Assembly: GCA_963767705.1 (NCBI GenBank)
Contig: CAVYEO010000002.1
Location: 1,404,353-1,468,352 of the forward strand
DNA from: an uncultured Acidobacteriaceae bacterium
GTDB lineage: Bacteria > Acidobacteriota > Terriglobia > Terriglobales > Acidobacteriaceae
Length of the DNA stretch: 64,000 nucleotides
Reading direction: 5' to 3'
This document shows positions 32,837 through 59,448 of the stretch, piece by piece. A model generated the notes under the pieces. It saw nothing but the letters and a program-made list of their open reading frames with translations. It was not told where the DNA came from and made no database searches. Position 1 is the stretch's first letter; every line of letters begins with the position of its first letter. A program made the translations under genes and the position numbers.

Positions 32837-32842
32837 GAGTAG

Positions 32843-34068: not shown

Positions 34069-34468
34069 CCTAAAGGTGTGGGTTCGGATCCACAACAGAA
34101 TTACCAGGGTCACAGCCCATTACATGAGTGCTGGCAAGGTGATTTCCACCACAATTTGCGTACCCTTCGCCGTTGTAGGTACATAGCCATAGTCACTGGG
34201 ATCGTACTGAGTGCAATCTTGCGCCCCTAGTCGTTTGAAGATGGATTTAGAGAGATTTCGCACAAACGCAGCCGCTTTTAGACTGTACTCGGGAAGGGTC
34301 CAGGTAAAGACCGGTCGCATGTTTCCTAGTGCGTCCTTATATTTGGATCGACCGTAACCTTATTCGAAAGCTACGCAGGAAGGTCAATCATGTATGCCAA
34401 GAGCAAGTGCCGGGAGATGCGTCGGATGAGTTCCTCTCGCAAGTCGCGGCCGAACTTATGCAGGTCAT

Positions 34469-36197: not shown

Positions 36198-36759
36198 CAA
36201 TCGCCACCCAAGAGGTAGTAGCTCAAGGGTGGCAAAATCTAAGTGCAAAGAAGATAACAATGTCAAAAAATATTAAACTTAATGACACACTTACAAGGCT
36301 GACGGGCTATATGAAAGTGGCGATACTGGCTCTCAGACTGGCAACAGGCTTGAAAGCTTTATTCATCTGAGTTCCGTACTCCCTTTCCAGCATCCCTCTA
36401 GCGGCCATTCACGCCGTTAGGGGGATTTCTTTTGTAGTAGCGCTTGCCCTTCTTTGCCTTCTTTGCTGCCGCCAATCGTCTGTCCAACTCCTCTTTGGGT
36501 ACGGACATGATCTTGTCCCTAGCCTTGTCGAACGTCTCGAACTCCTCAGACGGTTCTGAGGCTGCGCTCACGGTCGGTCGGACTAAGGTTTTCATGTAGC
36601 ACACACTAGACTATGACATGGATTATTTTACGCTGTCGGGCGATAAGGGCCGCGTAGAGGGGCTGTCTAGCCGACTTGGCTGACCTCCAAAGCCGCCAAG
36701 ATTTCTGATATTCATGTTCAGAAGCCGTAAAACCTCCCACAGACGAGGTAGACCGCGCA

Positions 36760-38888: not shown

Positions 38889-39521
38889 GGAGGTAGCTCC
38901 TTGTTGGTATTGCCAGGTTGGGGACCCAAGAAAAGCTGCTTGACACACTTGATGCTGGTCGCTGTGCGAGGAATTGTACTCTCAGCTTTTGCGCTCTTCA
39001 AAGTTAATCTAGCTAAACCCCGGCCCCCTCACCAGCTTCGTCATCCGTGGTTGGTCGCTGTGGCAGTGGTTGTACCGACTCGTCGACATTGGCTAGAACA
39101 AATCACCCAACGATCAGATTGGTCCTAGAAGTCCGCTTTTCGTCCGCAATCAGACTCGGCAACGCGAAAGTTCACAAGTTTCAGTAACAGCCTCGAAACT
39201 CGACTCCTACCATGCGCAGAACCGTCCAACTAAGGCCGGCGGTTGGATGAGGGGCCGGGAAAGTTCAAGCGGGTTCTCCCGGCGGCGCTTTTGGGCAAAC
39301 CCCAGAGCGACAGGCCTGCCGCCACGCGCCGCACAAGGCTAATCAGCCTGGTGTGCTTGGTTTCTTTCTAGGCTTTGGACTTGGCAGCGAACTCCTGCTT
39401 GGCTGTGTTATCAGAACTAGCCCTCATCAACCCGAGTCTTCTTAGGCCAACAACATACGTGACAAATCCGACGTATAGCGGGATACCTGAAGCATGGAAC
39501 AGGCACCCAAGACGCTTCAGA

Positions 39522-39905
39522 AAGCAGTGCTCTACTTCAACCAATGCAGATAACTGCCGCAACTACCTAGTGGCACGGCGCTGGCCTGAAGGCGTGATTC
39601 GCCCTCGCTGTGGAAGCGATAAGGTGGCGTTCCTTCCCAAGTACAACCCATGGCAGTGCAGCACGAAGCATGACGCCCGCCAGTTCACGGCGAAGACCGG
39701 CACGATCATGGAAGAGACGCCTATCGGCTTAAACAAGTGGCTAATGGCGATGTGGCTGATTGTGAACTGCAAGAACCGCATCAGTTCGTATGAGACTCAC
39801 CACGCTATCGGAGTAACACAGGAGACCGCATGGTTCCTCAATCACCGCATTCAGCTGGCGCTCACGTCCGGCAGCTTCGACCGAAGCCGATCTCAGCCGA
39901 CCTAG
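39522..39905 (+). pseudogene. IS1595-family transposase, N-terminal half (zinc-ribbon plus HTH)
   Basis: CRNYLVARRWPEGVIRPRCGSDKVAFLPKYNPWQCSTKHDARQFTAKTGTIMEETPIGLNKWLMAMWLIVNCKNRISSYETHHAIGVTQETAWFLNHRI is the characteristic IS1595 N-terminus. It ends about where the 35711 fragment begins. Confidence 0.7.
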
Positions 39906-40728
39906 CCGCAAGATGCGATAGACGCGATCAGGCCGAAAGAATGGAGACCCTGTTCCGTGCCGGTGCTTGCCGTGCCGCGATCCGCCGTCATCAAAGACAT
40001 TGAGAAGAGAAAGCGGCGTCGCGCGAAGAAGCAGGAATAGCTGAATGGGACTGCGGGTGCTGCACCCGCAGCAATGCTTGTTCCGACCGTCCACACTGTA
40101 TCCGCAAAAGCGACACCGAATGAATCAGTAGTCATATCAGCCTCCATGTTTTCCGTCTTTGGCCTTTTTAGCATCGTAAGCAGCACCACAAACATGATCC
40201 ACAGACAGCCGAGCCAAGCATCCGAGAAGTCGGACCTTCCGAACCCGGAAGACTCAGACTACCACAGGCCGTTCAGCCGCTTTTTATGTTGATTTGCCAA
40301 GTATGTTGTTGCCCTTCTTAGCCGAAGGGGATTTTAGGTTCCTGCGACTATCCACGAGTGATAAATCGCCAATGCGCTCATGGAGCTTCGTTCAAGCAAA
40401 CTCCGCGTTGCTCCCGAGTGACGGTCAAGCCGGAAGTTGAGTTCGCGGGCGGCAAGTCGCGACGCGCTGATCGGGAACGAGCCCCGCATCAGTCTCCATG
40501 AACGCGCGTGCCTGTACCTAGCAGCACCACAGCCGGTTGTTTCCGAACCCACACTCCTGGGAACATTCAAACCTATACATGATAGGTGCGGGAAGTCTCT
40601 GCTCCATCGGTTCATCAACACGACTTTGACCATCGCGGCATTGGCGTTTAAAGCTGCCGCTGCAGCGGTCAACCAACTGAAACAAATGCCCGCTCTCTCC
40701 TAAGGGGATCAGAACCCACACCTTTAGG

Positions 40729-40756
40729 AACAGCCGGATGGTGAGATCCGGCTGTT
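40729..40756. repeat. 28-bp perfect palindrome, copy 2
   Basis: aacagccggatggtgagatccggctgtt read directly. It is the mirror of 34041-34068. Confidence 0.45.
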
Positions 40757-40807
40757 GATTTCGGGGGAGTTAGGGGCCAGCTTTTGGCAGCCCTTTTGAA
40801 ACAGGGG

Positions 40808-41404
40808 TCAGGCCAGTTTGGGAACTGGAGGGTTCTGGTCGCGCAGGACCCGGTGGATGGTGGCCCGGGAGACGCGGTGGAGCTTGGCCAACTCACTCAG
40901 GCTCATGCCGGAGGCCCGGTCCCGGAGCACACGACCGCGGTCGATGTCGACCGGCTTGCGTCCGATGTGGCGGCCTTCGAGCCGAGCCCGGCGCATGCCG
41001 GCCCGGACCCGTTCGACGATCAGGCTGCGTTCAAGCTCGGCGATGGCGCCGACGATGACCACCATGGCCCGGCCGAGCGGCCCGCCGGTGTCGATGTTCT
41101 CGCGGAAGCTGACGAACTCGATCGACAGGTGGTTGAGTTCGTCCAGGATCTCAAGGAAGTGCCGAACCGAGCGGGCCATCCGGTCGAAGGCCCAGACCAG
41201 GACCACTTCGAAGCGGTGCTTGCGGGCGTCGGCCATGAGCTGGTCGAGCCCGGGCCGCTTCGCCTTCGCCCCCGAGATGGTGTCGGAGTACTCGCGCACG
41301 ATCTCGAAGCCGCGCTGCGAAGCCATCTGGCGGAGGTCGTACATCTGGGTCTCGGGATGCTGGTCTACGGTCGAGACCCTGAGGTAAAGCACGGCGCGCT
41401 TCAT
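40808..41404 (-). CDS. Small serine recombinase (resolvase/invertase family), copy 2
   Basis: Its 199-aa translation is identical to copy 1. Confidence 0.9.
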   Translation of the reverse strand: MKRAVLYLRVSTVDQHPETQMYDLRQMASQRGFEIVREYSDTISGAKAKRPGLDQLMADARKHRFEVVLVWAFDRMARSVRHFLEILDELNHLSIEFVSFRENIDTGGPLGRAMVVIVGAIAELERSLIVERVRAGMRRARLEGRHIGRKPVDIDRGRVLRDRASGMSLSELAKLHRVSRATIHRVLRDQNPPVPKLA

Positions 41405-41550
41405 CACCGCGCCCGCTTCAGGCCCTTGGGGTAGTTCTCCCGGACGAACTGCTCGATGAACTCAAGCAGGACATCGGTCATGTTCTTGCCCTGGCTGGCA
41501 GTGGCGACCTTGAAGGCGTTGTGGAGCTCGACTTCGACGTTCAGGTTCAT
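41404..41550 (-). CDS. Small RHH protein, copy 2
   Basis: Mirror of 33247-33393. The C-terminus is KRAR instead of KRGR. Confidence 0.5.
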   Translation of the reverse strand: MNLNVEVELHNAFKVATASQGKNMTDVLLEFIEQFVRENYPKGLKRAR

Positions 41551-41663
41551 GCGTTTCACCCTTGGTTCTTCCGGTTCCGGGGTTCGTTTCCTGGCTGGGA
41601 CGATGGCTCACCTCCTCAAGAGGTGAGCTTATCTATATATGAGTAAGGTGGCCAGCCGGCCGG

Positions 41664-41954
41664 TCAGGCCGGCGGCCCCTGGTAGTGGCGGGTGGTGACG
41701 GCGATCGAGACGATGTCCTCCTCCGAGTTCTCGAGCACGGCGGCGATGGCGCGGAGCTGGGCCGGGTCCTCCGGGACCCAGCCGCTCTCGAGGGCATCCC
41801 ACTGGGACAGCTCCATGCCGGCCAGCCGGGCGGCGGCTTCGGCGGTGAGGTTGAGATTGCCGCGGCGGCGCTCGACATAGAAGGCCAGGAGCCGGGAGAA
41901 GTGGAAGTGGGGAGGCGAGGGGGGCAGATGGGGCATATCGATATGTGTACTCAT
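41664..41954 (-). CDS. XRE/Cro-like HTH protein, copy 2
   Basis: 96 aa, with one residue difference from copy 1. Confidence 0.55.
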   Translation of the reverse strand: MSTHIDMPHLPPSPPHFHFSRLLAFYVERRRGNLNLTAEAAARLAGMELSQWDALESGWVPEDPAQLRAIAAVLENSEEDIVSIAVTTRHYQGPPA

Positions 41955-42026
41955 CTACTCATTATAGTTGAGAGCTTCCGGCCGCCCAAGACCAAAATCG
42001 CCCCCCTTGCACAAAAACGTGATGAG

Positions 42027-42706
42027 TATTTACTTATACCGGCCCGGACCCGGCTTCCTTCTTCGCCAACTTCACTGGCAGCCCCGCCGCTCTGGGCAAC
42101 CAGTTCTACAACTACGGTGGCCTCGGTATGGGCCAGGGCCAGCTCGGGCAGTATACGAATGGCCAGCTCACCGGCGGCGAAGTTTCAACGCCTGAGTCCG
42201 GCAACTACCAGAACATGCACTCCGCGCCGATGCTCCCGAATTACCTGGGCATCCCGTTCCGCATTCTGGTCAGCCCCTTCATCAACTTCGATCCCGAGAC
42301 CAAGACCACTGATGTCCTGATGTTCAACAGCAAGAACCTCGGCGCCCTGATCGTGCAGGAAGATCCGCACGTCAAGAGCTGGGAAGACGGCAACCTGAAC
42401 ATCAACAACATGTCGATGGAAGAGACCTACGGTTTCGGTATCCTCAACCAAGGTCAGGCGATCGCCATTGCTCGCAACGTCAAGATCCGCCCGAACGAAT
42501 TCACCATGCCGGCGCGCAGCGTGTTCAGACCAGGTCTCTCCGTGACCGCGGCCCAGCAAAGCCCTCGCGCGGCGCGCCGGACCGCTAGACACAAGTGCAT
42601 CTTGCCCGACCACTGCACTCTTCAGCCAACAGGCCTTCTTCTCCGTTGCTCGCTTCCAGCGTGTTACTCGCGTTTCTCGATACGGCTGCTGCGTTTGCCG
42701 GGCTGA
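42027..42706 (+). pseudogene. Second copy of the 5'-truncated (capsid-like?) gene fragment, with a different C-terminal tail caused by a 1-nt indel
   Basis: Mirror of 32208-32770. After ...AAQQSPRA the frame differs from copy 1 (the CG-repeat run is 1 nt shorter), extending the ORF to 42706. Confidence 0.35.
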
Positions 42707-43351
42707 CTGACGCACTTCAGCGCTGCCCTCCTGGCCGAATCCGATCTCTGCCCTCAGCCAGGACCGGGCTGACCGCTGGCTCTTACTCACCTCCAGTCAC
42801 GCTGTTTTCCTGGCAGCCATTTCCGTCCTCTTCCAGGCCCATCTCCCGCCCGTTCAGGAGATGGAAAAACCGGCCCCGGAAAGGAGGAACTTCTGTAACT
42901 GCATCTGTGGCACGGGGTTTTGCTCTGGAGATTGCACGCGTTTACGAGGGGACATTGATTTCCCTACGTAGCACTGGCACTTAGTGCACAGAACGGGCTG
43001 GAAATCGCCGCTCTAGTATAGGATCTTCCCCCCCAACACGATGAAAAAGGACAGGAATTGATCGGTTCTCCATCTACACTGCGCTCGAGCCGTACTCATA
43101 TACTTCTGAACCTGGCCCTCTTCGAGACCGTTCCTGGACCCGCTCGCCCCAGGGAAGCCGGGGCATCTGGACTGGAACAAGCCCCCTCCGCCCACCGCCC
43201 CGCCCCACTAGACAAAGCTCTAATCGAGTGGCTTTAAAGCCGCAACAATCGGCAACATGGATTGAGACGTGTGGAATCGAGAGTTCGGCCTCGGATGCAG
43301 ATTCGGGCAGGTCGTTCCTAGCTTCGCTCTAATAGAGCAAGGCCCAGGAGG

Positions 43352-46300
43352 TCAGAACAGGTTATAGCAACTCTCGACCACGCACTGGCCGAGACGCCGA
43401 TAGCTTTCAAACTGGCTTTCCGTAAAGAACTGATTGAGGGTCTTGTCGTGAGGAAATTGCGCATGCTGTAACCAATAGTTCTGAATATCGCCGGGAAGAT
43501 TCGGCAGATCGCCGGGATTCGACCCGCTCCCTGGCGCGCCTGGCGGCGCGCCGACAAGGGATGCTTTAATGTAGGTGATGCGACCGCAACAGCCATCAGG
43601 CGTTTCCGGGTACTTGATAGTTCCCTGGATAGCGTGCGCCGAGCTGAAGCGCGTTTTCGCAACCAATCGCAGTTCGGAAAGGTTCAGGTTGATCTCGACC
43701 CCGAAATCGATCCGGCACTTGCGAATGGCCATGCCGATGCCTTCAAAGAGATAGGTCTCGTCCTGCTCGGCGTCGCAGACGACGACGTTGTAACAGCGCC
43801 GGCGAATCAATTCGTATAGACCCATGTTGTCGAAGTGTCCGCCGTCGGTGAGATAAACATATTTATAACTGTCGTCTGTGCTTCCGATGAGCTCCGAGAA
43901 GAGCGCCAGACCCGTGGGCGAGCCCAAACCGCCTTTCCCGCTTGGCGCATCGCCGAGTTTCCGTCCGGCGCAGGACAGCTTGCGCGGGTTGGGTAGCCAG
44001 CAGCCGAGGCGAGCGTTGAACATGGTCAGCAGGAAGGCCGTTGCCGGTTTCGTGTGGTAGCCCCAGTTGGGACTGAGGGCGGCACCGGAGATTGCCATAG
44101 CCGTTGAGATATTCAGACCCCCTTCGGGGGCAGCATAGAGCTCGGTAGGCACGAAGCCGTTGAACTGCGTGCCCGGCTCGCCCTCCGTCCAGCTTGCCGT
44201 GTATCCCGTATAGAGCGGGGTGAAGGCGAAGGAGGCGCCTTTGCGCTCCTGATAGGCGAGGTCCTTGCCCGTAGTCAGGTTCAGGGTGGCGCAGAAGATG
44301 GGGAAGGGGCCGGGATAGTCCTGATCCGGGAGTAAGGCACCGCAGTTGGAGTCCGCGCGTGTCGCGGTCGTCGAAGCCAGTCAGTGGATTAGGGTCACGG
44401 CTGCGGTTCGAAGCGCCAAGATAGCAGCGCGTCAGCCGGTTGCGGTAGAAGGGGAACATGGAGAAGGCGTTCGCGTTGAGCCGCCAACCGAAGGTCAGCG
44501 ATGCCAAAAACGAAACCAGAAGCCCGCTGCCGAGCCGCCATGGGTGGGAGCCGCTGCCGAGCCAGAGCTCGATCGTCCAGGAGAGCAGCACGAGCAGGCC
44601 GAGGATGTAGACGTAAGGGCCGACGGTGGCAAGCAGCTCGGCAGACAGGGCGGTCTTGGTCTTTGGAGCATCGGCTGCCGCTCCATCGGTCTTGGCGCTT
44701 TTACCGCTGGCAACGGAGGCGGCGGTTGTCGCGGCCCAGGCCAGCACGGTCGACCACTTTAAGGCGGAGCTGTAGATGACACTGGTTAAGAAATCAGGCG
44801 AGAGCAGGGCGATCGAAAAAAGGCCGAGCCATGCCAGCGCGATGAGGAGGGTGCTGGCCTGCAGCCGTCCGAGCAACTCGCGTATCCAGTCGTCAAACTG
44901 CCGCCCTACCGCGCCGACGAGGAGCCCGACCGTTAAAAACGGTATGGACGCGAGCAGGGGAACGCCGAAGATCAACTCTATGCCGGGAACCGGGCAGTGC
45001 ATCCAGCGGGCTCCCCAGTGCTCCAGGGTGGCGACACGGATAAGCACGGCAAGGAGGGCAAAGACCGCCGCTCCCCCAAGGGAGACCAGCGAACACAGAG
45101 CAGAAAAACCCAACCGGGCCCAAAGTCCATACCGCGGTAGAGCCCTGCCGCCGAGAGCCACACCCATGCTCAAAAGGAATAGTGCTCCAGCAACGCCGGC
45201 GTATTGCCATGCTGATGGATCGGCGCTGACAAAAGCGTAGCTCAGTGGAATGGCGGGAAACATGAGCAGGGCAAGGATGAAGCTGGTATCCCAAGGATGA
45301 CTTGATTTGCGCCGCGTCTTCCTCTCACAGTCGAGAACATCTGCCAGCGGACCAGGGCAAGGTGGGATGGTGCCGGGCGCAGTGGACGCTCGGACGGCCT
45401 GGTCGCATGCCCGGATATAGGAGTGCTCATCACTCAAGAGAAGAGCCAGATAAAAAGCGCCAACCAGAAAGAGGATCAGCCCGGAAACTATCCAGAACAG
45501 CGATTTCTGGTTCTTCTGTAGGACTCTTGCATTGCACGGCGCCTGCTGAGGCTGGCTTAGCGCGTTGCATAAATTGAGCCGGGGACATCCGCTCAGATCC
45601 AAACGTTTCCCGGCCCAGGATGCCACGGAATATCGCAGAGTGCAGCCATAGTGGTGTGAGAAGGTTTCCGCTGCGATGCCAGAGGCTGCGCCCTTCGCGA
45701 GTCCCGAAATGGCGAATGTGTACTGGCCTTGGACACCGGGGCCCGTGGCGGCGAAATGACCGGCGATGCTGGCCGGCTGCGTGGTCTCCCGTTTGGTGCA
45801 GGCGCTCCCGGGGTCGGCCCATGGCACAGAGAAGAGCCAGGGAATGAGCAGCATGAAGAGGAGCGCGGAGATGAGCACGATCTGGTTCAACAGCGTGTTT
45901 CTTATCCAGATGGCGATAGCGGTCCAGGTATCGAGAGTGAAGAGGCCCTTTTCCGGCGTTAGGTAATTTGAGTAGCTGCGCAGCCAGCGTATCTCGAAAG
46001 GGGCGCGTTGCGGCGGAAGGGAACGTTGGATGGAGGCGTCGTATTTCGGATCATCTTCTGGACTTTTCCGATTGGGAATGCAATTCGTCGAGGCCGGGAT
46101 GGGCGACATGGCGGCTTGCACCTCCTTCAACGCTTCCTTGCACGCAAAGCAAGAGTTGCGTCCCAACCTTTGTCGCGCTGTTTCGCGTTTCAGCCAGGCG
46201 ACCAGCCAGGCGTGGATGTAGCCTCCGCCGGAAACGGAAGACAGATAATCGTAGTCGTTCAGCTTCTGCTTAGAAGCGAGACCTTGCAGAACGCCGAGAT

Positions 46301-46733
46301 TGAAAGTGGCACTTCGGATGCCGCCGCCGGACAGGCATAGGCCGGAGAGCTTTTCCAGCCGAGCCCAGTCGTATACCGTCGCGGGTCGCTTTGGGTCAGT
46401 TAAATCCGGTGGCCACGGTTTGCAGTCTCCTCCATGGACGGCACGCACTTTGCATAATGTCGGAGCTTCCTGCTCCAGCAGCCATTTACTCGGCACATAG
46501 TCGACAAGATTAGCAAGCGGCTGCTGAAGCCCCGGGTTGCTGCGCATGCAATCTAAAATGTCCTTCTCCGCACAAGGGGCCAGCGATGGCAGCGTCGTTT
46601 GCTGAATCGCCCAATCACGTACCGTCCTGAGCTCCGGGACAGCAATCAAGAGCTCCGTGCTGATTGGCTTCCCGATGTCTTTCGCGTAAGCAAGAACACG
46701 TTGCGATAGTTCCTCGAGATAGTCACTTCCCAT
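43352..46733 (-). pseudogene. Patatin-like phospholipase with a large polytopic membrane insertion; one frameshift between about 44,300 and 44,380
   Basis: CLSGGGIRSATFNLGVLQGL (oxyanion GGGxR) and SSVSGGGY (nucleophile elbow) lie in the 988-aa ORF, followed by at least 9 hydrophobic helices. After ...NPLTGFDDRDTRGLQL the homologous path continues in the frame of ORF 43352-44152 (CGALLPDQDYPGPFPIFCATLNLTTGKDLAYQERKGASFAF...LTDGGHFDNMGLYELIRR, the catalytic Asp motif). The start is placed at ATG 46733 (AGGAGA 8 nt upstream). Confidence 0.75.
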
Positions 46734-46806
46734 TGGTTGTTCTCCTGGCATGGGTTTGTCGTATCTGACCCTGGCAGTACCGTTTGTTCCTGCCCCGCGT
46801 CCTGCG

Positions 46807-49800
46807 TCAATGTGCCGTGTGGAGCACATCCGCGAATTGAAGTCCGTTGCACTTCGCAGCTACAGCGTCGTTGTTCGGCACGGAGGAGGATTCGTTCGTC
46901 GCGAAGCACTGGATCTTGCGGTGGTGAAACTCCCGGATGGGCTGGTCCGCTAAGTCGCGAAGTGATTGCGCGGTTCGCGCCTTGCAGTAATGCTGTTCGT
47001 ACACGTTTTGCGTTCCTCGCGAGTACGCCCAGTGACAGTCCTGCCCCTCGCTATCGAGTACCCTGTCCGAGACGAAGCGGATGCCGAAAGCTAGGTCCGC
47101 CGCGGTCGGTACTGCGATAGCGCTTACGATGGCCGAGCTGCTGTGGTACTCTTTCGCGGCGTGCAGTGGTATCCCTGCGAGCGTTCCGATGTAAGGCAGC
47201 TCGACGAACGGCGGCAGCAACGGCAGCAAAGGCCGTCCCTTAGCCAGCACCGCGGAAAACGAAGATAGATCGAAGAGCACGATGGAATCTACCCGGACAT
47301 GCGTGTTCACGCTGTGTGTCGCCACGCGCGAAAGGTCAGGATCGCTCGTGTTCTGATTGGCGCTGGACCAGTATTTAGGGTCAGCCGATTCCGCAGCAGT
47401 AAGCCTTACGTCCATCTCAGCACCGGACGCGCCCACGGTGCTGCGCGGAGTTACCGAGAGGTTTAGATTTCGGCCAATGTTGATTTTCGTCGTCTGATAA
47501 GTGGAGAGCCCGGCCAACACTGCTTGCGCTTCCGCGGACAGACCGCCCGTAGCGACGGCCGCTGCAGTGGAGGCCGCCTTGGAAGCGGTGGCAGTCCCGC
47601 CGCCACCGCTGGAGCCGGAAGAGCCGCCCTGACCGGATTTTCCACCGCCATTGCCGGAACCGCCACCTAACGCACCGGCCACGGCGCCAGCCACCGTGCT
47701 CCAGTCAGGCGCCGAGCTCGCATCGAGGAAGCTCTGCGATGTAGTGTCAACCTCAGCGGTGTGCCCGGAAACGGTGCGCACCGAAACAATGCCATCATTC
47801 AGGAAGCTGTCTTTGTTCGCGATGCCCTTGGCTGTAAGGGCAGTGCGGAGTTTGGCTCGCAGGTAGCTTTGGTACGCAGTGAGATCGTGGTTGAAGGCGT
47901 CGATCAAGGGATTAAGAGCGCTGTTGAAGGCGTCGGCGCTCTGTGTGAGGTCGTAGGGCGTGAACTCATGCGGGTACTGTTGGCTCATTTTGTAATGAAA
48001 GAGGAAATCGGCGATTGCTCGGCGCGCCAGTCCCAGTTCGCTCGGCTGTGTATCTTGCGGGCCTGTGCGGTGCAGAAGCAAAGTAGCTGCGCGCCGGAAG
48101 CACTCAAGGTAAAGGTCAGGTGACGGATGTCTGCCGGAATCATTTTGGGCGTAGATCTCCTGCCGTACAATTCCTATCTGGTCAGCCGTTTCGCAGTCGC
48201 GGACTCTATCGAGCCGCAAGTCCGGATCATTCACCTGGCCCACCAATTGAAGCGCTCTGGCCGTCTGTCCGGTTAGGTCTTGTTCTTGAGCTAGCCCGGT
48301 CTTAATCTTTTTGTCCGCGCGGCGCAGAGTTATACGGGCCTGCCTGTTCTGCGCCCAGACCTGCATGCCTTCCTGAATCCGCGGAGGGCCGCACTGGGTG
48401 CCGGCAGCGTCCTCGACGTCCTCTATTCGGTTGATTGCGCAGTTGGTGACCCGCGCTGGATTTTCCGCAGCGATGATAGCGAGCAGCAGATTTGTGAGCC
48501 GCGGCTGCAAAGGTTGAAAGAGGGTGGTGTACCCCAGGCAGTACTCCCCGACAAGGCATACGTTCTGTCCGGGAGCGTCATACGCTCTCACGCTTTGCGC
48601 CATGAAAATCTTCTGTCGGAGCCCGGCGAAGGGCTTGCTTGACTCGAACGGATCGCGGTAATCGGCATTGTCGAGCACCGTCATTCCGGTGAGATACTTG
48701 TAGAAAGGTGGATCGAAATAACCTTGGTCCGCCATCGCCAGCTTGAGATACTCCCAGCCGGTCAGAACCCCCCGCTGCAGCCCCGTGTTATGGTCGTTCA
48801 CCGTCTGCCGGATAACCTGGTTGGCGGCCCCGAACTGATCTGCTCGTTTGGTCGAATTCTGGAGCACCCAACCGTTGATGATCATCTCCGGGCGCGGCAG
48901 GTCGAGGAGCGCCAGGACACGCTTCTGCTCACTGATTGCAGCATCGTCGCCCAGGTTTGCGCCTTCTGCGAAAACTATCAAGTCGCCTGCTGCTGACGTG
49001 GAAGCCTGGACTTGTGCCGAGGATTGGCCGTCAGCACCCGAGCCCTTGCCGGCGCCGGTCTTCTTCGCACTGCTGTTCTCGGAGGAAGACCCCCGCCCTT
49101 CGAAGAACTGCTAGCTCCTTTGCTCTTGGTCTTACTGGTTGAGTCTCCGCCCGGGCTGGAGCCTTCGCTTTGGTTTGCGTTCTGGCTCCCGCCTGCGCCC
49201 GCGCTCGTACTCGGCGCAGCTTGCTTGTCCGTTCCTGTTGCAGCTCCCGGCGACGCCGAGTCAGTCTGGTCATCCTGACCTGCGGAAGGCGCAGGTGCGG
49301 CTGTAGCGTTAACTAAGCTGGCGGCAGTGGGTGCGTCCAGCGAGTACACGCGCGCTACCGGGGACTCTGAACCGGGACTCCAAGCTAGTCGGTGCACTGC
49401 GTCGAGAAAAGCTTGAAGATCTGTACACGAAGGCGAGCCAGATACAGTAATTCGGATTCTGCCTCCGCCCGCATTCTGGGCCGCGAACCATGGTGAGCCC
49501 AAGGCTGTGATGCTTGCCGCTGGATCACCGAGCGAGCGTGCATGAGGAACCTCGAAATCGAACGATGCCGTAGACTTTGCCGTGAGCACGAGCGGGAGCC
49601 AAATCTGAATGAGGCGGTTGAGAACGGTATTGTCTGTACTTCCTGTCTTTCCCGCGGCGCGTGTCAACACCAAGGTATTAGTATCCAGCGCCGTTAAGGT
49701 GAACGGGGCGGCCTTTCCTAACACGGTAGCGACATCTATTGCAGAGGCGGCGGATGCACGAGACTCGAATACAGGATTCGGCGGTGGTGGGGGGCCTGCA

Positions 49801-50189
49801 CGCACGGGGCATGAGGACAGAGCCAGAACCGGAGGCGAGCACGGCTGTCCTTGGGGCGACGGAAATAAGCATAACGCCTTGTTGCCAAGTGGAATTTCGC
49901 ATAGCCAGTGGTCAAGGTGACACACGGCTACTGGTACGCTGGCAGCTAACTTGGTCGAAGGCGGCTGGAGCGAGGCGCCGTTCGCGTTGCGGCTTGCGCT
50001 CCCGGTCACCTTCTTGTTTGCCGCTGGTGCAGTGCCGCTCCTAGGTTTTTTGTTTGGCGCCGGAGTAGCTGGGCTAGTGGTTGCAAGACCCGAGTAACCG
50101 AGCATGGCAGAACACAGCGAGCACGCAAGGATTCCACCGATTAAGGAACCAAGAAGAGAGCGCACGGATCTGCACAGGAGCAGCGCCAT
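46807..50189 (-). pseudogene. Large exported, possibly lipidated, secretin-like protein; two ORFs (403 and 724 aa) separated by a 1-nt frameshift in a Ser/Gly-rich linker
   Basis: There is an N-terminal signal peptide with a possible lipobox (GGILAC). The 724-aa frame is open upstream to 49110 and reads SSSENSSAKKTGAGKGSGADGQSSAQVQASTSAAGDLIVFAEG, continuing the low-complexity text of the 403-aa ORF. A C5 run at 49090-49094 sits at the switch point. The C-terminal blocks LNLSVTPRSTVGASGAEMDVRLTAAES, THVRVDSIVLF, VELPYIGTLAGIPL and AIVSAIAVPTA resemble the secretin C-domain. The family call is tentative. Confidence 0.45.
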
Positions 50190-51629: not shown

Positions 51630-54600
51630 TTAGTCGACTCGATGCTCCAAGACATTCCGCTCGCGCAGGGCTTCATAAAGCTGTGCAGGTCCCAGCAAGA
51701 CTTCTTTAAGACCACTACGGACATGTTCTGACTCCAGCGCCTGCTTGCTCAGAGAGGATAGCGCGCGAAGAGCGTCCATGATGGCGTTGATGAGTTCGTG
51801 ATTCAGATCGGGCGAGTTGGCGAACTGCTCCTTGGTGTTGTTCGCCGCCTGCTGCCTCAACGTGTCCGACTCCAGCAGCTTGCCCTTGATCACGTCGTTC
51901 ACGTAGACGAGCTTGTCCTCCTCGGTCAGTCTCGCCTTCGAAGAGGTCATTGACCTTGGCGATGATCTCGCCAGCCGCGCCTTTTCCTTCTCCTGCACGG
52001 AGCCGGAGCCTGTGTCGGTCAGCGGCTTCAGCGTCGGTGCGTCGCCTTCGCCAAGAGGCAATGCTGCGGTTCCCGCGTTCATGCAGGATGTGGTGCGTCA
52101 GCACCACCTTCGAGAGATCGACTCCGTCCCGCTCGCGGCCAAACTCCAACAGCGGCAGCAGTCGCTTGTAGAAGATAGCCCGCTTCTCGAGCCCCGTGTT
52201 CCCGTAGTCGAAGATCTGCGACAGGAACGTGTAGGCGTGACCGAAGCTGCCCATGTCGCGCTTGAACAGCATCAGCGCCTCCATCTCAGCGTGAGCGTCT
52301 TCGGCTGCGCCGTCGTCGCCTGCGGACTTGCGCAGCCTTCCAACGTTCACTGAGCTGCTTTGAATTGGCGCACCAGCCGATCCGCCACCGGCTCCAGAGC
52401 GCGCACCAGATCGCCCTGCTTCGACTGCGGGTTCAGCTCCACCGTCACAACGCGGTCCACCTCGAACTCGTCGTAGTGTCCGGCTGCATCCAGCTTGGCA
52501 CGCAGGTTGTAGACCAGGTTCGGATCGGTCACGTCCTCCAGCGTTGCCGTCGTCGTAGTAGGTCTTGAACGCCTCCAGGACCTCTTCGGCATCATTCACG
52601 AAGTCCAGCACAAATGTCGTGTCCTTAATGCCGAAGCGGCCCGAGTAGGAGCGGTTCAAGCGCGATAGCGTCTGTACTGCCTGGATACCCGCCGAGCCGT
52701 TTGTCCACATACATCCCGCACAGCAGCGGCTGATCGAAGCCGGTCTGGAACTTGTTCGCTACCAGCAGAATCTGGTATTCGTCCGTCTTGAAGGCCTCGC
52801 GGATGTCCCGCCCGCGCAGATTCGGGTTCAGCACTTGACTGTTCTCCGTGAATGGGTCTGCGCCGGACTCCTTATCGTTTACCTCACCGGAGAACGCGAC
52901 CAGCGCGCTCAAACGATAGCCGCGCGACTGGATGTACTTCTCGATGGCCAGCTGCCAGCGCACTGCCTCTAGCCGGCTACCGACCACGACCATCGCCTTT
53001 GCGTGACCGTTCAAGCAGCGGTTGGACATTCTCACGGTAGTGCTCCACCACGACCTGCACCTTCTGCGAGATGTTGTACGGGTGCAGCCGCACCCAGCGC
53101 ATGATCCCCTTCATCGCCGTCGTGCGTTCGACCTCTGTTTCGTCGTACTCCTTGCCATCATGGGCGAGCTTGAAGGCGAGCTTGTAGGTCGTGTAGTTCT
53201 GCAGCACGTCGAGGATGAAACCCTCCTCGATCGCTTGCCGCATGGAGTACACATGGAACGGCTCAGGCAGGTTCGTCGGTCCTGCTGGCTGATCTGGATC
53301 TGGCCTGCGGCCAAACAACTCCAGCGTCTTTGCCTTCGGTGTCGCCGTGAACGCAACATAGGTGATGCCCGTATCGGCGGTGCGAGCCGTCATCTGCGCC
53401 CGCAGCACGTCTTCGAAGCCAACTTCGCCGCCGTCCTCGATCTCCTGCCACTCTTCGGCGCTGAGCACCTGCTTCAGCTTCGCGGCTGCCTCGCCCGTCT
53501 GCGAACTATGCGCCTCGTCGGCGATCACAGCGAAGCGTTTGCCCTCGGTCGCTGCAAGCTCGCGACACCTTTTCCAGGGCGAACGGGAAGGTCTGGATCG
53601 TGCAAACGACGATCTTCTTATCGCCGGAGAGCGCCTCCGCCAGCTCCTTGCTCTTGCTGCCGCTCTCGCCCTTGATGCTGGTCACAACACCCGTCGTGCG
53701 CTCGAAGTCGAAGATGGCGTCCTGCAACTGCTGGTCGATCACGTTGCGGTCGCACACCACGAGCACGGAGTCGAACACCTTCTTGTGCTCGGCATCATGC
53801 AGGTCTGCAAAGAAATGCGCCGTCCATGCAATCGAGTTCGTCTTGCCCGAGCCTGCCGAATGCTGGATCAGATATTTGCCGCCCGCACCTTCCGCCTTTA
53901 CGGCGGCCAACAGCTTCCGCGTCGCGTCGAGCTGGTGGTACCGCGGGAACAAATAGCGCGTCAGCTTCTTCTTGTCGTCCTTTTCCGTGACAAGGTAGCG
54001 GCCCAGGATGTCCAGCAAGCTCTCGCGCTCCCAAACCTCCTCCCACAGATAGCTGGTTCGATGGCCTGCCGGCGATGGTGGATTGCCGGCCCCGCCGTTG
54101 TCGCCCTTGTTGAAGGGCAAGAAGCGAGTGGCCGGTCCCGCCAGCCTGGTCGTCATCTGAGCTTCGGAGTTGCTGACGGCGAAGTGAACCAGTGCACCAC
54201 CGGGAAAGCTCAACAGAGGCTCGGCCTTTTGGCCTTTCGGCTGCGGATGCCGGTCGAACCGATACTGATCTACGGCGTCCTTCACGTTTTGGGTGAAGTC
54301 GGTCTTCAATTCCACCGTGGCGACGGGCAGGCCATTCAGGAAGAGCACGAGATCAAGGCAGTTCTCATTGCCCTCGGAGTAGCGCACCTGGCGGACGACG
54401 CGCAAGCGGTTGGCCGCGTATCGGGTCGTGATCGCCGCATTGATGCCGGAGGCAGGACGAAACTGCGCCAGGGCAATCTTGCTCTTCACTGGGAAGAGCT
54501 CGATGCCGTTCCGCAGTACGTCTAGTGTTCCGCGCGTATCCAGATTCTGGCGAAGTTGGTCGAGTAGACGGGAGTCAGCTCCAAGGCCGTGTCCTTTGGC

Positions 54601-54774
54601 TAATGACTGCCATGCTTCCGGTTGCGACTCCTGCACCCACGCAATCACATCCTCAGGGAACAAAGCCCGCACCCGGTCGTACTGGGCGGAAACAGCCTCC
54701 TCATATACCCAGCCATGCTGCCCGAGGTACTCGGCAATCTCGACCTCGAAGTGAATCTCTTTGTGCAGGCTCAT
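51630..54774 (-). pseudogene. hsdR: Type I restriction enzyme R subunit (HsdR), disrupted by about eight frame changes
   Basis: The homologous path jumps between ORFs:
- 53506-54774 (nuclease and motif I, QHSAGSGKTNSIAW)
- 52977-53528 (IADEAHSSQTG, the DEAH box)
- 52625-53035 (NGHAKAMVVVGSR...QILLVANKFQTGFDQP)
- 51715-52710 (AGIQAVQTLSRLNR...)
- 52347-52595
- back to the 51715 frame
- then alternating with 51630-52082 (C-terminal helical domain). Confidence 0.85.
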
Positions 54775-56087
54775 GCAGCCTCTTTCGGGGTGAAGTTGCG
54801 CACATCGATCTTACCGGTGACGGCAGAGGAGATGAGGGCGCTGCGACGTTCTTGGAGTAATCTAGTCCCGTCTTCGGCCATCTCTATTAAGCGGTCAATA
54901 GCCCCAGTGACTTGATCTAGGTATTCAACGATGGCTTCCTGTTCATCGGGTGTTGGAATGATGAGTAGCATCGAACCAAGTTCTTGCGCGTTGAGATGGG
55001 GCTGGGCAGCTCGCGTCCTTTCAAGATCGATTTGGTTCTCTTTGAGATACGAACTTAGCAGTGCATATTGAACAAAGTATGGGTTCACATCCACACATCT
55101 TAAGATCATGTCGAACCCGGCGATGCACGGGCCATATCCTTTACGGATAATGGCCGAGTCACCCGTATATGCGCCACTCCGGACAACGATTATGTCGCCC
55201 GGCTCAAGCCAAAAGGCTCTGTCCCCTGGAATGTCGCTGGGATCAATCAAGACGAGATCATCCTCGTACAGCTTCCCAGCATGCACGTTTGTCGCCCTTA
55301 TAAGTGGAGTGCCTGAGTCTCTATAGACTGGAGGCTCACCGATTCCATATCGGATTGACCCTATGCGTTTGACATAGCTAGTAGACCATTCGTAAGGAAA
55401 GTGACCAACTCCGCCAATATTCGAATCCTTTGTCGGGGCATTGGGATCGAGGCCCTTGGTGACTGCGTGCGAGATGACCGCCTGACGCTTCTCCTTCAGC
55501 AACTCGATCAGCCGCCGCTGTTCTTCGATGAGCTCTTCTATTTTCTTTGTTTCATGATCTAAGAAGGACGCAACGTTCCGCTGCTCTTCCATTGGAGGGA
55601 GCGGGAGATCGATGAGTGTGAATTTTTCGTATCTCATGGCTTGTCCATCACGGACTAGGTTGGATGTGGTCTGAAGTGCTTGGATATATAGATCGGACTT
55701 GAAAAGGTAACGGAAAAAACCCGGATATACAGAGTCCACTGGAGCGAGCATCACATACGCCGAACTAATGCAACCCCGAATGCCGCTCCATTCAAGGCCT
55801 CCTTGAAATGAGCGCATACTGATGACAAAGTCATCAGGCTCTACGTGCTTGAGGATTTCGGCTCCATGGATCACTCGCACAACGGCTCTGCCTTCGGCCT
55901 GCATGAACGCTTCCTGTGTAACGATGCCATGCTTCTGCGAAGCCGTGAGCTGCTCGTCTGAATCACGAACACGCTCCTTGCGCTGAGCAAACAAGCGTCG
56001 GCTCCGGTAGATGTCCCAGTGCTCCGGCACCCCGCCCAGCCAATCCACCCCACTGTCTTTGTATCGCTCGTAGCGCGGTAAGCTCAT
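54771..56087 (-). CDS. hsdS: Type I R-M specificity subunit (HsdS), two target-recognition domains
   Basis: 438 aa with the two conserved helical spacers LIEEQRRLIELLKEKRQAVISHAVTKG and RLIEMAEDGTRLLQERRSALISSAVTGKI separating two variable domains. ATGA overlaps both neighbouring genes. Confidence 0.85.
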   Translation of the reverse strand: MSLPRYERYKDSGVDWLGGVPEHWDIYRSRRLFAQRKERVRDSDEQLTASQKHGIVTQEAFMQAEGRAVVRVIHGAEILKHVEPDDFVISMRSFQGGLEWSGIRGCISSAYVMLAPVDSVYPGFFRYLFKSDLYIQALQTTSNLVRDGQAMRYEKFTLIDLPLPPMEEQRNVASFLDHETKKIEELIEEQRRLIELLKEKRQAVISHAVTKGLDPNAPTKDSNIGGVGHFPYEWSTSYVKRIGSIRYGIGEPPVYRDSGTPLIRATNVHAGKLYEDDLVLIDPSDIPGDRAFWLEPGDIIVVRSGAYTGDSAIIRKGYGPCIAGFDMILRCVDVNPYFVQYALLSSYLKENQIDLERTRAAQPHLNAQELGSMLLIIPTPDEQEAIVEYLDQVTGAIDRLIEMAEDGTRLLQERRSALISSAVTGKIDVRNFTPKEAA

Positions 56088-57127
56088 TCAGCCTCACTTT
56101 CCCGCGTGTCCTGCATGTAAAACTCCTGAAGCTTGGCCTGAAGCAGCTTTTTATCGGGAAGCGCTGTCTGATACTCGGCAATCAGCGCGGGGGACAACGT
56201 GCGGCTCAGAGCATATTCCACCACCTTGTCTTCCTTACTGGCACAGAGCAGCACACCGATGGAGGGCTGTTCGTGCGGCTTACGGACATCGCGGTCCAAC
56301 GCCTCCAGATAGAAGTTCAGCTTACCGAGATGTTCAGGCTCGAATCGCTGCACCTTGAGTTCAAACGCAACCAGGCAGTTGAGGCCACGATGGAAGAAGA
56401 GCAGGTCTAGCGCAAAGTCACGCGTTCCCACCTGCACGGGAAACTCCGAGCCGATGAAGCAGAAATCCCGGCCGAGCTCCAGCAGAAAATCCTTCATCCG
56501 GCTAAGCAATGCCTGGTGAAGGTCATTCTCGGTGTGTTCTCGCGGCAAGCCGAGAAACTCGACGTTATAGGCGTCTCTGAAAACGTCTATCGCCTCTGGG
56601 TGCATTTGTCTCACCGCTGCCGAGACTTTTGGCGGCGACAGCACCACTCGCTCAAACAGAGCTGCGTTGAACTGGCTTTCCAATTGGCGGCTTGACCAGC
56701 GTTCCTTCGCTGCCATGCGGACATAGAACTCGCGCTCTTCCGGCCTCTTGCTCTGGCCGAGAATGATGAGGTGATGGGTCCAGGGTAATTGTCTCAGCAG
56801 TGCCGAGACAATTGCTTCATCCCGGTACGCCTCATAAAATTGCTTCATTCTGAATAGGTTGGGCCGGGAAAAGCCGCGCAGCCCTGGATGCGTATGGGCG
56901 ATGAACCGGGCCAGATTCTCGACCGTCCCAGAGCCCCATTCGGCAGCTTCAATCTTGCGGCTAATGTGCTCGCCCACCTGCCAGTAGAGGTCGATGAGCG
57001 CGGTATTCACGGCGCGGTAGGCGTTTTGCTGAGAAGTTGCGATCAATGCAACGATCTCGGTAAACCCGTCGGGATCGGGCTGCGGCACAGCCAACGCGGA
57101 CTGATGTCGGTTCGGCTTTGTCGTCAT
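56084..57127 (-). CDS. DUF1016/YhcG-like PDDEXK nuclease-fold protein embedded in the R-M operon
   Basis: There is an N-terminal helical region (LIDLYWQVGEHISRKIE...) and a C-terminal D-LLFFHRGLNCLVAFELK block (PD-(D/E)xK pattern). It has 4-nt ATGA overlaps with hsdM and hsdS. Confidence 0.8.
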   Translation of the reverse strand: MTTKPNRHQSALAVPQPDPDGFTEIVALIATSQQNAYRAVNTALIDLYWQVGEHISRKIEAAEWGSGTVENLARFIAHTHPGLRGFSRPNLFRMKQFYEAYRDEAIVSALLRQLPWTHHLIILGQSKRPEEREFYVRMAAKERWSSRQLESQFNAALFERVVLSPPKVSAAVRQMHPEAIDVFRDAYNVEFLGLPREHTENDLHQALLSRMKDFLLELGRDFCFIGSEFPVQVGTRDFALDLLFFHRGLNCLVAFELKVQRFEPEHLGKLNFYLEALDRDVRKPHEQPSIGVLLCASKEDKVVEYALSRTLSPALIAEYQTALPDKKLLQAKLQEFYMQDTRESEAE

Positions 57128-59273: not shown

Positions 59274-59448
59274 CGATCACCACAACAGATTGTGCTTGCA
59301 CGGCCTTCTCTGATGATGTGTTGCCTCGCTTATTCGGCCTTGGGAACACCTGCCGATTGGAAAGAAGCTGTTGTTACGACTACGATGGCAACGCCTGAAG
59401 TTCTAAACTTTCGTAAGAGCCCAGCCAAAGGGTCAAGTGAGAGGTTGT

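Follow-up and report, generated by a model that had tools for sequence, protein, structure and literature searches.

Secretins are a family of outer-membrane multimeric channel proteins that assemble as 12-15-mers into rings, long beta-hairpins making up a double-walled barrel; they are represented by GspD/PulD (T2SS), PilQ (T4P), InvG/MxiD/YscC (T3SS), CpaC/RcpA (Tad), BfpB and pIV. The pIV secretin of filamentous phages works with the inner-membrane partners pI/pXI. A patatin lipase is joined to an outer-membrane barrel in the type Vd protein PlpD, where lipase, POTRA and a 16-stranded barrel are fused in one polypeptide. Lipases of the cPLA2/patatin type also include human cPLA2-alpha, GIVD, potato patatin, ExoU and CapV of CBASS. 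Here, we analyzed two adjacent minus-strand genes, A and B, in a 64,000-nucleotide stretch of DNA (the window) from an uncultured Acidobacteriaceae bacterium. They represent a recurrent, undescribed pair of a secretin-like protein and a lipase, predicted to lie in the outer and the inner membrane, respectively. The explanation that best accounts for the data as a whole, and which we hold to be rather probable, is that a divergent secretin (A) and a membrane lipase (B) form a recurrent trans-envelope pair that has been pseudogenised at this locus.

Conceptually, the pair resembles PlpD, in which a lipase of the patatin type is likewise coupled to a beta-barrel protein of its own in the outer membrane. 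However, PlpD combines an Omp85-type barrel with a secreted soluble lipase, whereas here two genes are predicted to encode a secretin-type barrel and an inner-membrane lipase that is unlikely to be secreted. A type Vd identity was rejected, as the genes are separate and neither A nor B has a POTRA or Omp85 match in Pfam. With pIV and stand-alone secretins, gene A shares that it is encoded without an adjoining T2SS/T4P motor; unlike pIV, it has no phage genes beside it and is partnered by a lipase instead of an ATPase. A fold search of A against viral proteins found nothing.

Both genes are interrupted. Gene A is covered by the minus-strand ORFs 48978-50189 (403 aa) and 46807-48981 (724 aa), gene B by 43863-46829 (988 aa) and 43352-44152 (266 aa), all four lying where the initial annotation had placed them. 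The genes and their frame breaks are:

46807..50189, minus strand: gene A, divergent secretin-superfamily (predicted), 1127 codons, one frameshift (ORFs, repair, intact homologues, tblastn)
49090..49094, minus strand: frameshift site of gene A, coding-strand G5; one extra G restores the frame; Ser/Gly/Ala-rich low-complexity linker
43352..46733, minus strand: gene B, predicted cPLA2/patatin-type phospholipase with polytopic membrane insertion, 1126 codons, one frameshift (ORFs, repair, Pfam, Foldseek)
44316..44357, minus strand: frameshift window of gene B, one base too many; most likely 44318-44320, pinned by the family consensus

The downstream frame of gene A is open back to ~49110, and lengthening the G5 run (C5 on the plus strand) by one G in silico yielded a single ORF of 1127 aa. 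The fusion proposed at this run is thus borne out by the repair and by intact homologues of 1000-1240 aa, which cover 90-100% of the repaired protein; a single tblastn HSP from Edaphobacter paludis (q1-1127, 54.5% identity) spans the junction. For gene B, any single-base deletion within 44316-44357 restored one ORF. The family consensus L-x-P-x-x-G-Y-x-G-P puts the extra base at ~44318-44320 (GGA-C-TAT), which is not a homopolymer. Gene B is therefore split once, as had been noted, but ~20 nt away from the earlier estimate of near 44,340. Its start is most likely the ATG at 46733, with an AGGAGA Shine-Dalgarno sequence 7 nt upstream, giving 1126 aa in line with the length first annotated; alignments with homologues extend over 99-100% of repaired B. 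The junctions of both genes are thus spanned by intact homologues. As the break in gene A would have to be bridged by a -1 shift within a G-run, programmed events, i.e. ribosomal frameshifting or phase variation regulating expression, might be considered. This is extremely improbable: all homologues are single ORFs, the sequence C-GGG-GGT departs from the X-XXY-YYZ pattern of canonical slippery heptamers, and the site falls into a non-conserved low-complexity linker. Moreover, a G5 run is short for phase variation (the window holds 47 G5/C5 runs), and gene B would need a +1-type shift where the sequence is not repetitive.

In repaired protein A, a hydrophobic segment is followed by an alpha/beta domain, then by a low-complexity linker and a predicted secretin domain, which carries an insertion after its first strand:

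50100..50156, minus strand: N-terminal hydrophobic segment of A (aa 12-30), signal peptide or anchor, with an ILAC lipobox-like site (hydropathy 2.04)
49311..49751, minus strand: conserved N-terminal alpha/beta domain of A, aa ~147-293 (alignment block; AF2 beta-alpha-beta, pLDDT 60-79)
48829..48978, minus strand: secretin segment 1 of A (LIVFAEG...KRVLALLDLPRPEMIINGWVLQNST), end of N3 and first secretin-domain strand (hhalign)
47803..48828, minus strand: conserved Cys-containing alpha-helical insertion of A, ~340 aa (YCLGYTTLFQPL..., ADFLFHYKMSQQYPHEF...; AF2 helices with pLDDT 70-90, invariant columns)
47074..47802, minus strand: secretin segment 2 of A (IVSVRTVSG... LNLSVTPRS... VRVDSIVLF... 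VELPYIGTLAGIPL... AIAVPTAADLA; hhalign, long beta strands in AF2)
46810..47073, minus strand: C-terminal tail of A with four invariant cysteines, C1058, C1078, C1104 and C1123 (alignment)

Hydrophobic N-termini are also present in the aligned homologues of A. The lipobox-like site that had been annotated is indeed found in the window copy, but the assignment as an exported lipoprotein is weak because the lipobox cysteine is not conserved among homologues. The alpha/beta domain (~147-293) is possibly a periplasmic domain of the ring-building type; it has no Pfam match and gave a non-significant E-value of 0.25 in hhalign against secretin N-domains. Likewise, the ~340-aa insertion has no Pfam match and no likeness to secretins (hhalign E 0.6).

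The relation of A to secretins emerged from hhalign comparisons between a 147-sequence profile of A and a profile of nine diverse secretins. Segment 1 aligned to template columns 258-312 (E 6.2e-6, prob 85%), and segment 2, the C-terminal part alone, aligned collinearly with it (E 1.1e-4). With the insertion spliced out, the alignment extended over 236 columns (template columns 265-518; E 1.7e-8, prob 95%), a strongest score that depends on splice points of our own choosing. It runs from the end of N3 through the final strand of the secretin domain; of N0-N3, only the last helix of N3 aligns to A. A reduced profile of 18 sequences still gave an E-value of 1.4e-5, while the controls (insertion alone, N-domain alone, reversed) stayed at E 0.25-0.6. 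The unspliced run again chose the segment 1 alignment, but at E 0.01 and prob 4%. Both profiles share the motifs LD-x-P-x-x-(Q/E)-V/M, L-x-V-T-P-R and P-x-(L/V)-x-(I/L)-P-(x)-(I/L)-G, seen as LDLPRPEM/LD-x-x-x-x-QV, L-x-VTPR and ELPYIG/DIPxLG, and the stretches initially picked out as secretin-like (LNLSVTPR, VRVDSIVLF, VELPYIGTLAGIPL) are the very columns that align to the secretin profile. Also in common with secretins are the hydrophobic N-terminus of A, predicted to serve export, its conserved cysteines of the periplasmic type and the alpha/beta domain in its N-terminal part. Unlike secretins, it carries the ~340-aa helical insertion and long low-complexity linkers, has no recognisable N0-N3 array and goes undetected by Pfam Secretin/Secretin_N and NCBIfam.

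The HMM search for Secretin, set beforehand as a check, came out formally negative: Pfam Secretin (PF00263) and Secretin_N gave no match to repaired A at E<=1, and only one of 18 homologues matched Secretin, at E 0.17. The secretin link requires profile-profile methods and removal of the insertion. Gene A also has no sequence match in NCBIfam, PADLOC or the PDB, the latter queried by profile search. An AF2 monomer model (mean pLDDT 55.8) contains long beta strands in a low-confidence beta region. Foldseek with this model against the PDB returned secretins (MxiD, InvG, GspD, BfpB) as six of the seven best matches, with weak E-values of 2.5e-3 to 4e-2 and probabilities of 0.95-0.98 for the top five and 0.60-0.63 for GspD and BfpB; TM-scores were below 0.2, as obtained from a mediocre model. 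One may thus argue that A is no secretin homologue at all but a convergent, beta-hairpin-rich and unrelated periplasmic or surface protein, in line with the missing Pfam and PDB sequence matches, the low confidence of the beta region with its poor TM-scores and the weak unspliced alignment. We judge this very unlikely, as the two segments match the secretin profile in the right places and in collinear order while the controls fail, the hallmark motifs coincide, and the independent fold search is topped by secretins of T3SS, T2SS and T4bP. Judging from profile-profile and fold comparison, A is best described as a predicted, highly divergent member of the secretin superfamily, and the secretin-like character first assigned to it thus holds at the level of a remote homologue.

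Gene B carries the signature of a lipase whose catalytic domain is interrupted by a membrane region:

46218..46331, minus strand: oxyanion-hole motif SGGGIRS and nucleophile motif SVSGGG of B (invariant in the family alignment)
44460..45905, minus strand: membrane insertion of B between catalytic Ser and Asp, about 8-10 helices (hydropathy scan; helices 298-796 of the P0021 model)
43826..43849, minus strand: catalytic Asp motif TDGGHFDN of B (D1008-G-G invariant)

The oxyanion, Ser and DGG motifs are invariant in 53 homologues. Of the patatin motifs named in the initial annotation, GGGxR and DGG are present as such, whereas the presumed GxSxG is strictly an S-x-S-G-G, not a G-x-S-x-G, and is invariant in the family. 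Pfam Patatin (PF01734) scores 27.5 bits, slightly short of its gathering score of 27.7, and matches over its N-terminal 55 profile positions only, because the domain is split. The homologues number more than 4353 proteins, and many of them carry a precomputed PF01734 match. A profile search of B against PDB sequences found nothing. The AF2 model of the homologue P0021 (52% identical to B; pLDDT 74.7, pTM 0.74) retrieved the cPLA2 structures 1cjy and 5iz5 as top Foldseek matches with a probability of 1.0 over ~400 columns. Hydropathy predicts eight transmembrane segments in B and the P0021 model shows about ten long helices, the earlier count having been at least nine; a Cys-rich loop of ~110 aa follows the first helix of the insertion. 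B thus shares GGGxR, the catalytic Ser and the DGG dyad with cPLA2/patatin lipases, yet differs from cPLA2 in that ~600 aa with about 8-10 transmembrane helices split its catalytic domain at the cap position, in lacking a C2 domain and in its S-x-S-G-G nucleophile motif. Because this bundle of ~8-10 helices replaces the cPLA2 cap region, B is predicted to be an integral inner-membrane enzyme. Taken together, Pfam, motifs, hydropathy and fold match agree with the polytopic patatin-like lipase first proposed, and B is a cPLA2/patatin-type Ser-Asp phospholipase as predicted from its motifs and the homologue model.

To see how regularly the two genes occur together, we surveyed 83 related A loci, almost all from Acidobacteriota. 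A membrane-anchored patatin gene adjoins A in 33 of them, in at least four architectures; besides B, these include an N-terminal 8-TM region with patatin, patatin with DUF3376 and C-terminal TMs, and a double-patatin-like form, all of them polytopic. Where the downstream sequence is long enough to tell (73 loci), a patatin gene follows directly 3' of A on the same strand in 25 cases. The two-gene module recognised in the window is therefore not confined to it, and the pair recurs intact in many soil Acidobacteria. About 60% of the A loci have no nearby patatin gene, Edaphobacter paludis among them, and A is absent from most genomes with B-type lipases. The closest homologues of B are solitary, in a conserved ffh-peroxiredoxin-B-BrkB housekeeping context. 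A and a membrane patatin lipase form a recurrent operon-like pair in Acidobacteriota, in which neither gene needs the other. In 20 loci, the gene immediately upstream of A encodes a small OmpA-like beta-barrel of the outer membrane. Unlike the secretins of known machines, A is never found beside T2SS/T4P/T3SS ATPase, platform or pseudopilin genes, its partner being a membrane lipase; a search of 87 loci up to 10 kb from A, and of the window, found no GspE, GspF or GspG homologue. The pair has no counterpart in PADLOC, NCBIfam or the literature, in agreement with the initial view that it belongs to no described secretion or defence system.

How might the two proteins act? A and B may work as a two-protein trans-envelope module, in which A would form an outer-membrane ring whose N-domain, in the periplasm, docks to those loops of the inner-membrane lipase B that reach into the periplasm. 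By analogy, such docking could be modelled on GspD-GspC, PilQ-PilP and InvG-PrgH. The active site of B would most likely face the cytoplasmic leaflet, because B has no signal peptide and both catalytic halves must share one side. Our best guess at a role is a conflict or envelope-disruption module, in which the lipase would attack the inner membrane in concert with a pore in the outer membrane.

A more specific form of conflict is an anti-phage abortive-infection system, with the lipase as a killing effector like CapV in CBASS and A as sensor or second effector. Such a role would suit the island around the window pair, with its type I R-M system, PDC-S02 candidate defence gene, integrase, resolvases and IS elements, as well as the transposases, integrases and TIR, PIN, RHS/Tc toxin and Tle1-like lipase genes at some homologous loci. 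The swapping of the lipase partner between architectures is also a pattern typical of conflict systems. Nevertheless, we consider it quite unlikely: neither A nor B matches PADLOC at E<=1, which sets B apart from CapV; neighbourhood clustering of the A loci found no conserved cyclase, nucleotide sensor or NTPase partner; and several A loci, e.g. in Edaphobacter paludis, and the closest B homologues lie in housekeeping surroundings. A catalogued CBASS-type identity was rejected on the missing PADLOC match and cyclase/sensor partner, and the CBASS-like defence role suggested at first finds no direct support, the closest B homologues also standing alone in their housekeeping context.

These same contexts, together with the size of the B family and the OmpA-like barrel gene that often precedes A, speak for the main alternative role, housekeeping envelope lipid turnover. 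The pair would then serve, e.g., to turn over or remodel phospholipids, to keep the lipids of the outer membrane in balance or to release vesicles, with A as an outer-membrane scaffold or channel. We rate this as unlikely, since the window copy and several others sit on mobile or variable islands, A is missing from most genomes with B-type lipases, and a pore of secretin size far exceeds what lipid transport needs. Beyond the envelope-disruption role favored here, it is conceivable, at somewhat less than even confidence, that the A family represents an unrecognised secretin-based trans-envelope system, largely of Acidobacteriota, in which a ring of secretins bearing the large helical insertion would have an inner-membrane phospholipase and often a small outer-membrane barrel as partners in place of the pilus/needle-type motor. 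If true, this would add a new functional class to the secretin machines, serving e.g. envelope lysis, defence or lipid-linked export.

Within the window, A and B are most likely pseudogenes that no longer function, as parts of an island in decay. The island is linked to tRNA-Met and contains other degraded genes: HsdR is spread over at least four frames, a truncated 221-aa integrase lies beside tRNA-Met, and IS1595 is present as fragments. Counter-selection of a toxic module, as the initial annotation proposed, is not specifically indicated, as island decay or sequencing error explain the frameshifts equally well. At least the break in gene A could be a sequencing error, because one base is missing there from a G5/C5 homopolymer and the contig measures 1.76 Mb, a length that would fit a long-read metagenome assembly but does not in itself point to one. 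In addition, a B-type gene lies in four pieces in one related assembly (L007). That both frameshifts are sequencing or assembly errors, leaving A and B intact and functional in the organism, is nonetheless fairly unlikely. The extra base in gene B lies outside a homopolymer, the breaks cluster in the island (HsdR, integrase, IS fragments), and in the genes examined only one of the 47 G5/C5 runs, 49090-49094, falls on a frame break. Moreover, large core genes of the same window are full length, with AlaRS (966 aa), G6PD, xanthine dehydrogenase, an S9 peptidase and an amidase all intact as judged from Pfam coverage.

Genes A and B each occupy two open reading frames (ORFs) on the minus strand, whose coordinates match those of the initial annotation exactly:

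48978-50189, minus strand, 5' ORF of A, 403 aa
46807-48981, minus strand, 3' ORF of A, 724 aa
43863-46829, minus strand, 5' ORF of B, 988 aa
43352-44152, minus strand, 3' ORF of B, 266 aa

The frame of the 724-aa ORF of A stays open upstream to ~49110, where it carries on the Ser/Gly/Ala-rich sequence of the 403-aa ORF, and one additional G in the G5 run at plus-strand positions 49090-49094 yields a single frame of 1127 aa. The two ORFs of B are joined by loss of any single base within 44316-44357. Judged by the family consensus L-x-P-x-x-G-Y-x-G-P, the extra base is best placed at 44318-44320 (GGA-C-TAT), which is not homopolymeric. The start of B at ATG 46733, which leaves a gap of 73 nt after A and gives a protein of 1126 aa, is backed by an AGGAGA box 7 nt 5' of the ATG. 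Intact homologues of A comprise 1000-1240 aa and cover 90-100% of the repaired protein, and one tblastn HSP crosses the A junction; homologues of B (~1000-1200 aa) cover 99-100% of repaired B. Thus, the two fusions are not a product of chance.

Repaired A gave no Pfam, NCBIfam or PADLOC match at E<=1, so that the HMM test proposed in the initial annotation failed. Pfam Secretin was matched by only one of 18 homologues (E 0.17), and a profile of these 18 sequences against PDB sequences returned only low-complexity noise (E ~9). An exhaustive HMMER search placed 626 representatives of 50%-identity clusters in the A family at E<=1e-3, 339 of them at E<=1e-30. A word-indexed homologue search with the A alignment added almost nothing new, probably as low-complexity words swamp the search. 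From GTDB species genomes we recovered 78 A loci, almost all in Acidobacteriota (Acidobacteriaceae, Bryobacterales, Terracidiphilus, Solibacter), with single Binatia and Limnocylindrales bins outside this phylum. The homologue alignment divides A into eight parts:

Part 1, hydrophobic N-terminus
Part 2, conserved alpha/beta domain
Part 3, low-complexity linker, which contains the frameshift
Part 4, block DLLVF..GDD..I.E.KR.LA.LDLPRPEMIINGWVLQNST
Part 5, conserved helical region of ~340 aa with invariant cysteines
Part 6, second Gly/Ser-rich stretch
Part 7, blocks L.L.VTPRS..GAS.AE, TRVRVDS.KLF..S.FSA, PPFVELPYIG and SA.VVPTAADLA
Part 8, tail with four invariant cysteines

For profile comparison by hhalign, the reference was an alignment of nine secretins, diverse in type and drawn from annotated entries (GspD of E. 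coli K-12, EtpD, Neorhizobium GspD, a Nitratiruptor secretin, two CpaC-type proteins, SctC, MxiD and YscC). Full, unspliced A aligned through its LDLPRPEM block to the N3/secretin boundary at only E 0.01. Later runs used a 147-sequence A profile, with the helical insertion spliced out for the joint alignment. The first block alone then matched template columns 258-312 (E 6.2e-6, probability 85%) and the C-terminal block alone columns 412-518 (E 1.1e-4), while A minus the insertion aligned over 236 columns (265-518) at E 1.7e-8 and a probability of 95%. As controls, the insertion or the N-domain by itself and the profile in reverse gave E-values of 0.25-0.6.

The AF2 input alignment for A was shallow (18 sequences), and the model of the intact A homologue P0002 was mediocre (pLDDT 55.8, pTM 0.53). 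It shows a helix and a long strand, followed by a helical domain (pLDDT 70-90) and six long strands. In a Foldseek search against the PDB, secretins from different machines made up six of its seven best matches, with poor TM-scores and E-values of 2.5e-3 to 4e-2: MxiD (8axl) and InvG (7ah9, 6pee, 6q14) at a probability of 0.95-0.98, GspD (5w68) and BfpB (9u5s) at 0.60-0.63. A search against viral structures gave nothing meaningful. We conclude that A is a remote member of the secretin superfamily with an internal helical insertion; the assignment first guessed from motifs was thus right, as judged by hhalign profile comparison and Foldseek. With canonical secretins A shares remote homology and possibly part of the fold, but it differs from them in its lack of an HMM match and in its genomic context. 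The ILAC lipobox-like site is not conserved among homologues, and we therefore reject a conserved lipoprotein status for A.

B matches Pfam Patatin over the first 55 positions only, at 27.5 bits versus a cut-off of 27.7, because its catalytic domain is split. In the 1126-aa protein, SGGGIRS and SVSGGG occupy residues ~135-172 and TDGG is found at ~963, with eight hydropathy peaks between the SVSGGG and TDGG regions. All three catalytic motifs are invariant in the alignment of the B family, which numbers more than 4353 matches. A profile search of B against PDB sequences found no match. The AF2 model of the B homologue P0021 (pLDDT 74.7, pTM 0.74) contains ~10 long helices at residues 298-796, and the structures it resembles most are those of human cPLA2-alpha and GIVD cPLA2 (probability 1.0, ~400 columns). 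Judging from its motifs and this model, B is a predicted Ser-Asp lipase of the cPLA2/patatin type, sharing catalytic motifs and fold with this superfamily, in which a membrane domain appears to replace the cap region. Since B has no signal peptide and the catalytic halves must share one side of the membrane, we infer that the active site faces the cytoplasm; on this view, the Cys-rich loop of ~110 aa that follows the first helix would be periplasmic. As B is polytopic and carries no signal peptide, we reject its being an effector secreted through A.

The initial annotation had asked whether the pair recurs in related genomes. We surveyed all ORFs of the A loci with a B-family HMM and by phmmer with other patatin domains, and a membrane patatin gene was found near A in 33 of 83 loci; among the 73 loci having enough sequence, 25 carry it immediately 3' of A and in the same orientation. 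The lipase partners are not always of B type, yet all are polytopic membrane proteins. After P0002, the intact homologue closest to A, comes a protein of 885 aa that has ~8 TM helices at its N-terminus and an uninterrupted patatin domain; the partner at locus L062 resembles it. Partners at L019, L016 and L023 combine patatin, DUF3376 and C-terminal TM helices, and L017 shows yet another patatin arrangement. That a single predicted outer-membrane family sits next to several non-orthologous membrane lipases strongly supports a functional link between A and the lipases.

Pairing is obligatory for neither gene. A stands alone in housekeeping contexts in Edaphobacter paludis and others. The closest full-length relatives of B (50-52% identity; L095 3084-6650 and L096 8001-11576) lie in a conserved ffh(SRP54)-peroxiredoxin-B-BrkB order with no A-like gene, which suggests that the membrane lipase has a paralogue with a housekeeping role. 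Moreover, 20 loci (L010, L012, L016, L019, L022, L025, L030, L031 and 12 more) carry a small (~220-290 aa) OmpA-like/OMP_b-brl-type beta-barrel gene directly 5' of A and in the same orientation. It lies ~0.1-1.5 kb upstream of the A homologue, some loci thereby forming an OMP-A-patatin triplet; the window lacks this barrel gene. Homologues of GspE, GspF and GspG were absent within 10 kb of A in 87 loci and the window, and A as the T2SS/T4P secretin of a nearby machine was therefore rejected.

Some copies of A neighbour Tle1-like lipase, RHS/Tc toxin, TIR, PIN, integrase or transposase genes. At L003 (6994-9687) and L094 (9319-10416), T6SS Tle1-like (DUF2235) lipase genes or fragments and an Exo_endo_phos enzyme adjoin close A homologues; the Tle1-like neighbours are a second type of lipase association.

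Secretins pair with inner-membrane partners in GspD-GspC, PilQ-PilP and InvG-PrgH. By analogy, A may form an outer-membrane ring whose periplasmic N-domain would contact periplasmic loops of the inner-membrane lipase, the two proteins constituting a putative trans-envelope module without a motor. Because the lipase partners are swapped and the neighbourhoods are often mobile or rich in toxin genes, we lean towards a conflict or envelope-disruption function; a role in envelope lipids is kept alive by the housekeeping contexts of many relatives.

Neither A nor B matched the defence systems catalogued in PADLOC, and a literature search on secretin, patatin and Acidobacteria found no description of such a pair. 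To our knowledge, the secretins described so far serve solely as outer-membrane portals of T2SS, T3SS, type IV/Tad pili, competence systems and filamentous phages. We regard the A family as a so far undetected clade of secretins that contains an internal helical domain and is coupled to membrane-embedded lipases. It is missed by Pfam and NCBIfam and, by implication, by TXSScan-type profiles, in a phylum that is among the dominant ones of soil. That integral-membrane phospholipases of several architectures are coupled to it time and again suggests a role for secretins that involves neither filament nor ATPase. Confirmation would extend the range of known secretin machines and provide a first entry point to the function of a very large family of membrane-embedded cPLA2-like lipases that has so far gone unstudied.

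The message of the window itself is more modest. Its left 29 kb hold intact core genes (AlaRS of 966 aa, amidase, S9 peptidase, G6PD, xanthine dehydrogenase, HI0933-like), followed by these features:

29526-29601, tRNA-Met (CAT), with the integrase right after it
within 29526-30312, tyrosine-integrase ORF, 221 aa, catalytic domain only
31593-34091 and 40706-43204, inverted repeat of 2.5 kb, 97-99% complementary in three contiguous blocks
33390-33989 (plus strand) and 40808-41407 (minus strand), serine resolvase/invertase, identical 199 aa in each arm
35762-36370 and 39375-39905, IS1595 remnants within the 6.6 kb between the repeat arms
51630-54774, HsdR of a type I R-M locus, split in at least four frames (ORFs 53506-54774, 52977-53528, 52625-53035, 51715-52710 and 51630-52082)
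54771-56087, HsdS, intact
56084-57127, YhcG/PDC-S02 nuclease, intact
57124-58857, HsdM, intact

The tRNA-Met/integrase region is the likely left boundary of an island holding the A-B pair. Each repeat arm also encodes an HTH protein, the right arm ends ~150 nt downstream of B, and the whole unit could represent either an invertible segment or a composite transposon.

The frame breaks are concentrated in the island part of the window, which favours real decay over uniformly poor sequence. A sequencing error at the break in A would be in keeping with the homopolymer there, but given this clustering beside intact core genes we consider errors the less probable explanation. The HsdR junctions show no obvious homopolymers. 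Metagenome scans for the window allele, with or without the frameshifts, returned no match. Programmed -1 frameshifting or phase variation is unlikely: the site lacks a slippery heptamer, every homologue is a single ORF, and the G5 run, one of 47 G5/C5 runs in the window, is too short for phase variation. The genomic island is in decay, and the A-B locus within it is probably a dead copy of the module. No observation in particular favours counter-selection of a toxic module, the cause initially put forward.

Broken B-type copies are not unique to the window, as in one related assembly (L007, 13684-16838) the B-type gene 3' of A lies in four frame-shifted pieces, which could reflect assembly error or decay. 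In the core region at 6023-7370, the same-strand ORFs 6705-7370 (partial NYN domain) and 6023-6814 have 110 nt in common and may be another frameshifted gene, which would bear on sequence quality. Beside the R-M locus, 59437-63321 encodes an intact 889-aa DUF4062 and AAA_16 ATPase, followed by a 400-aa ORF without family match; with no PADLOC match, these genes may be an uncatalogued NTPase-based defence candidate.
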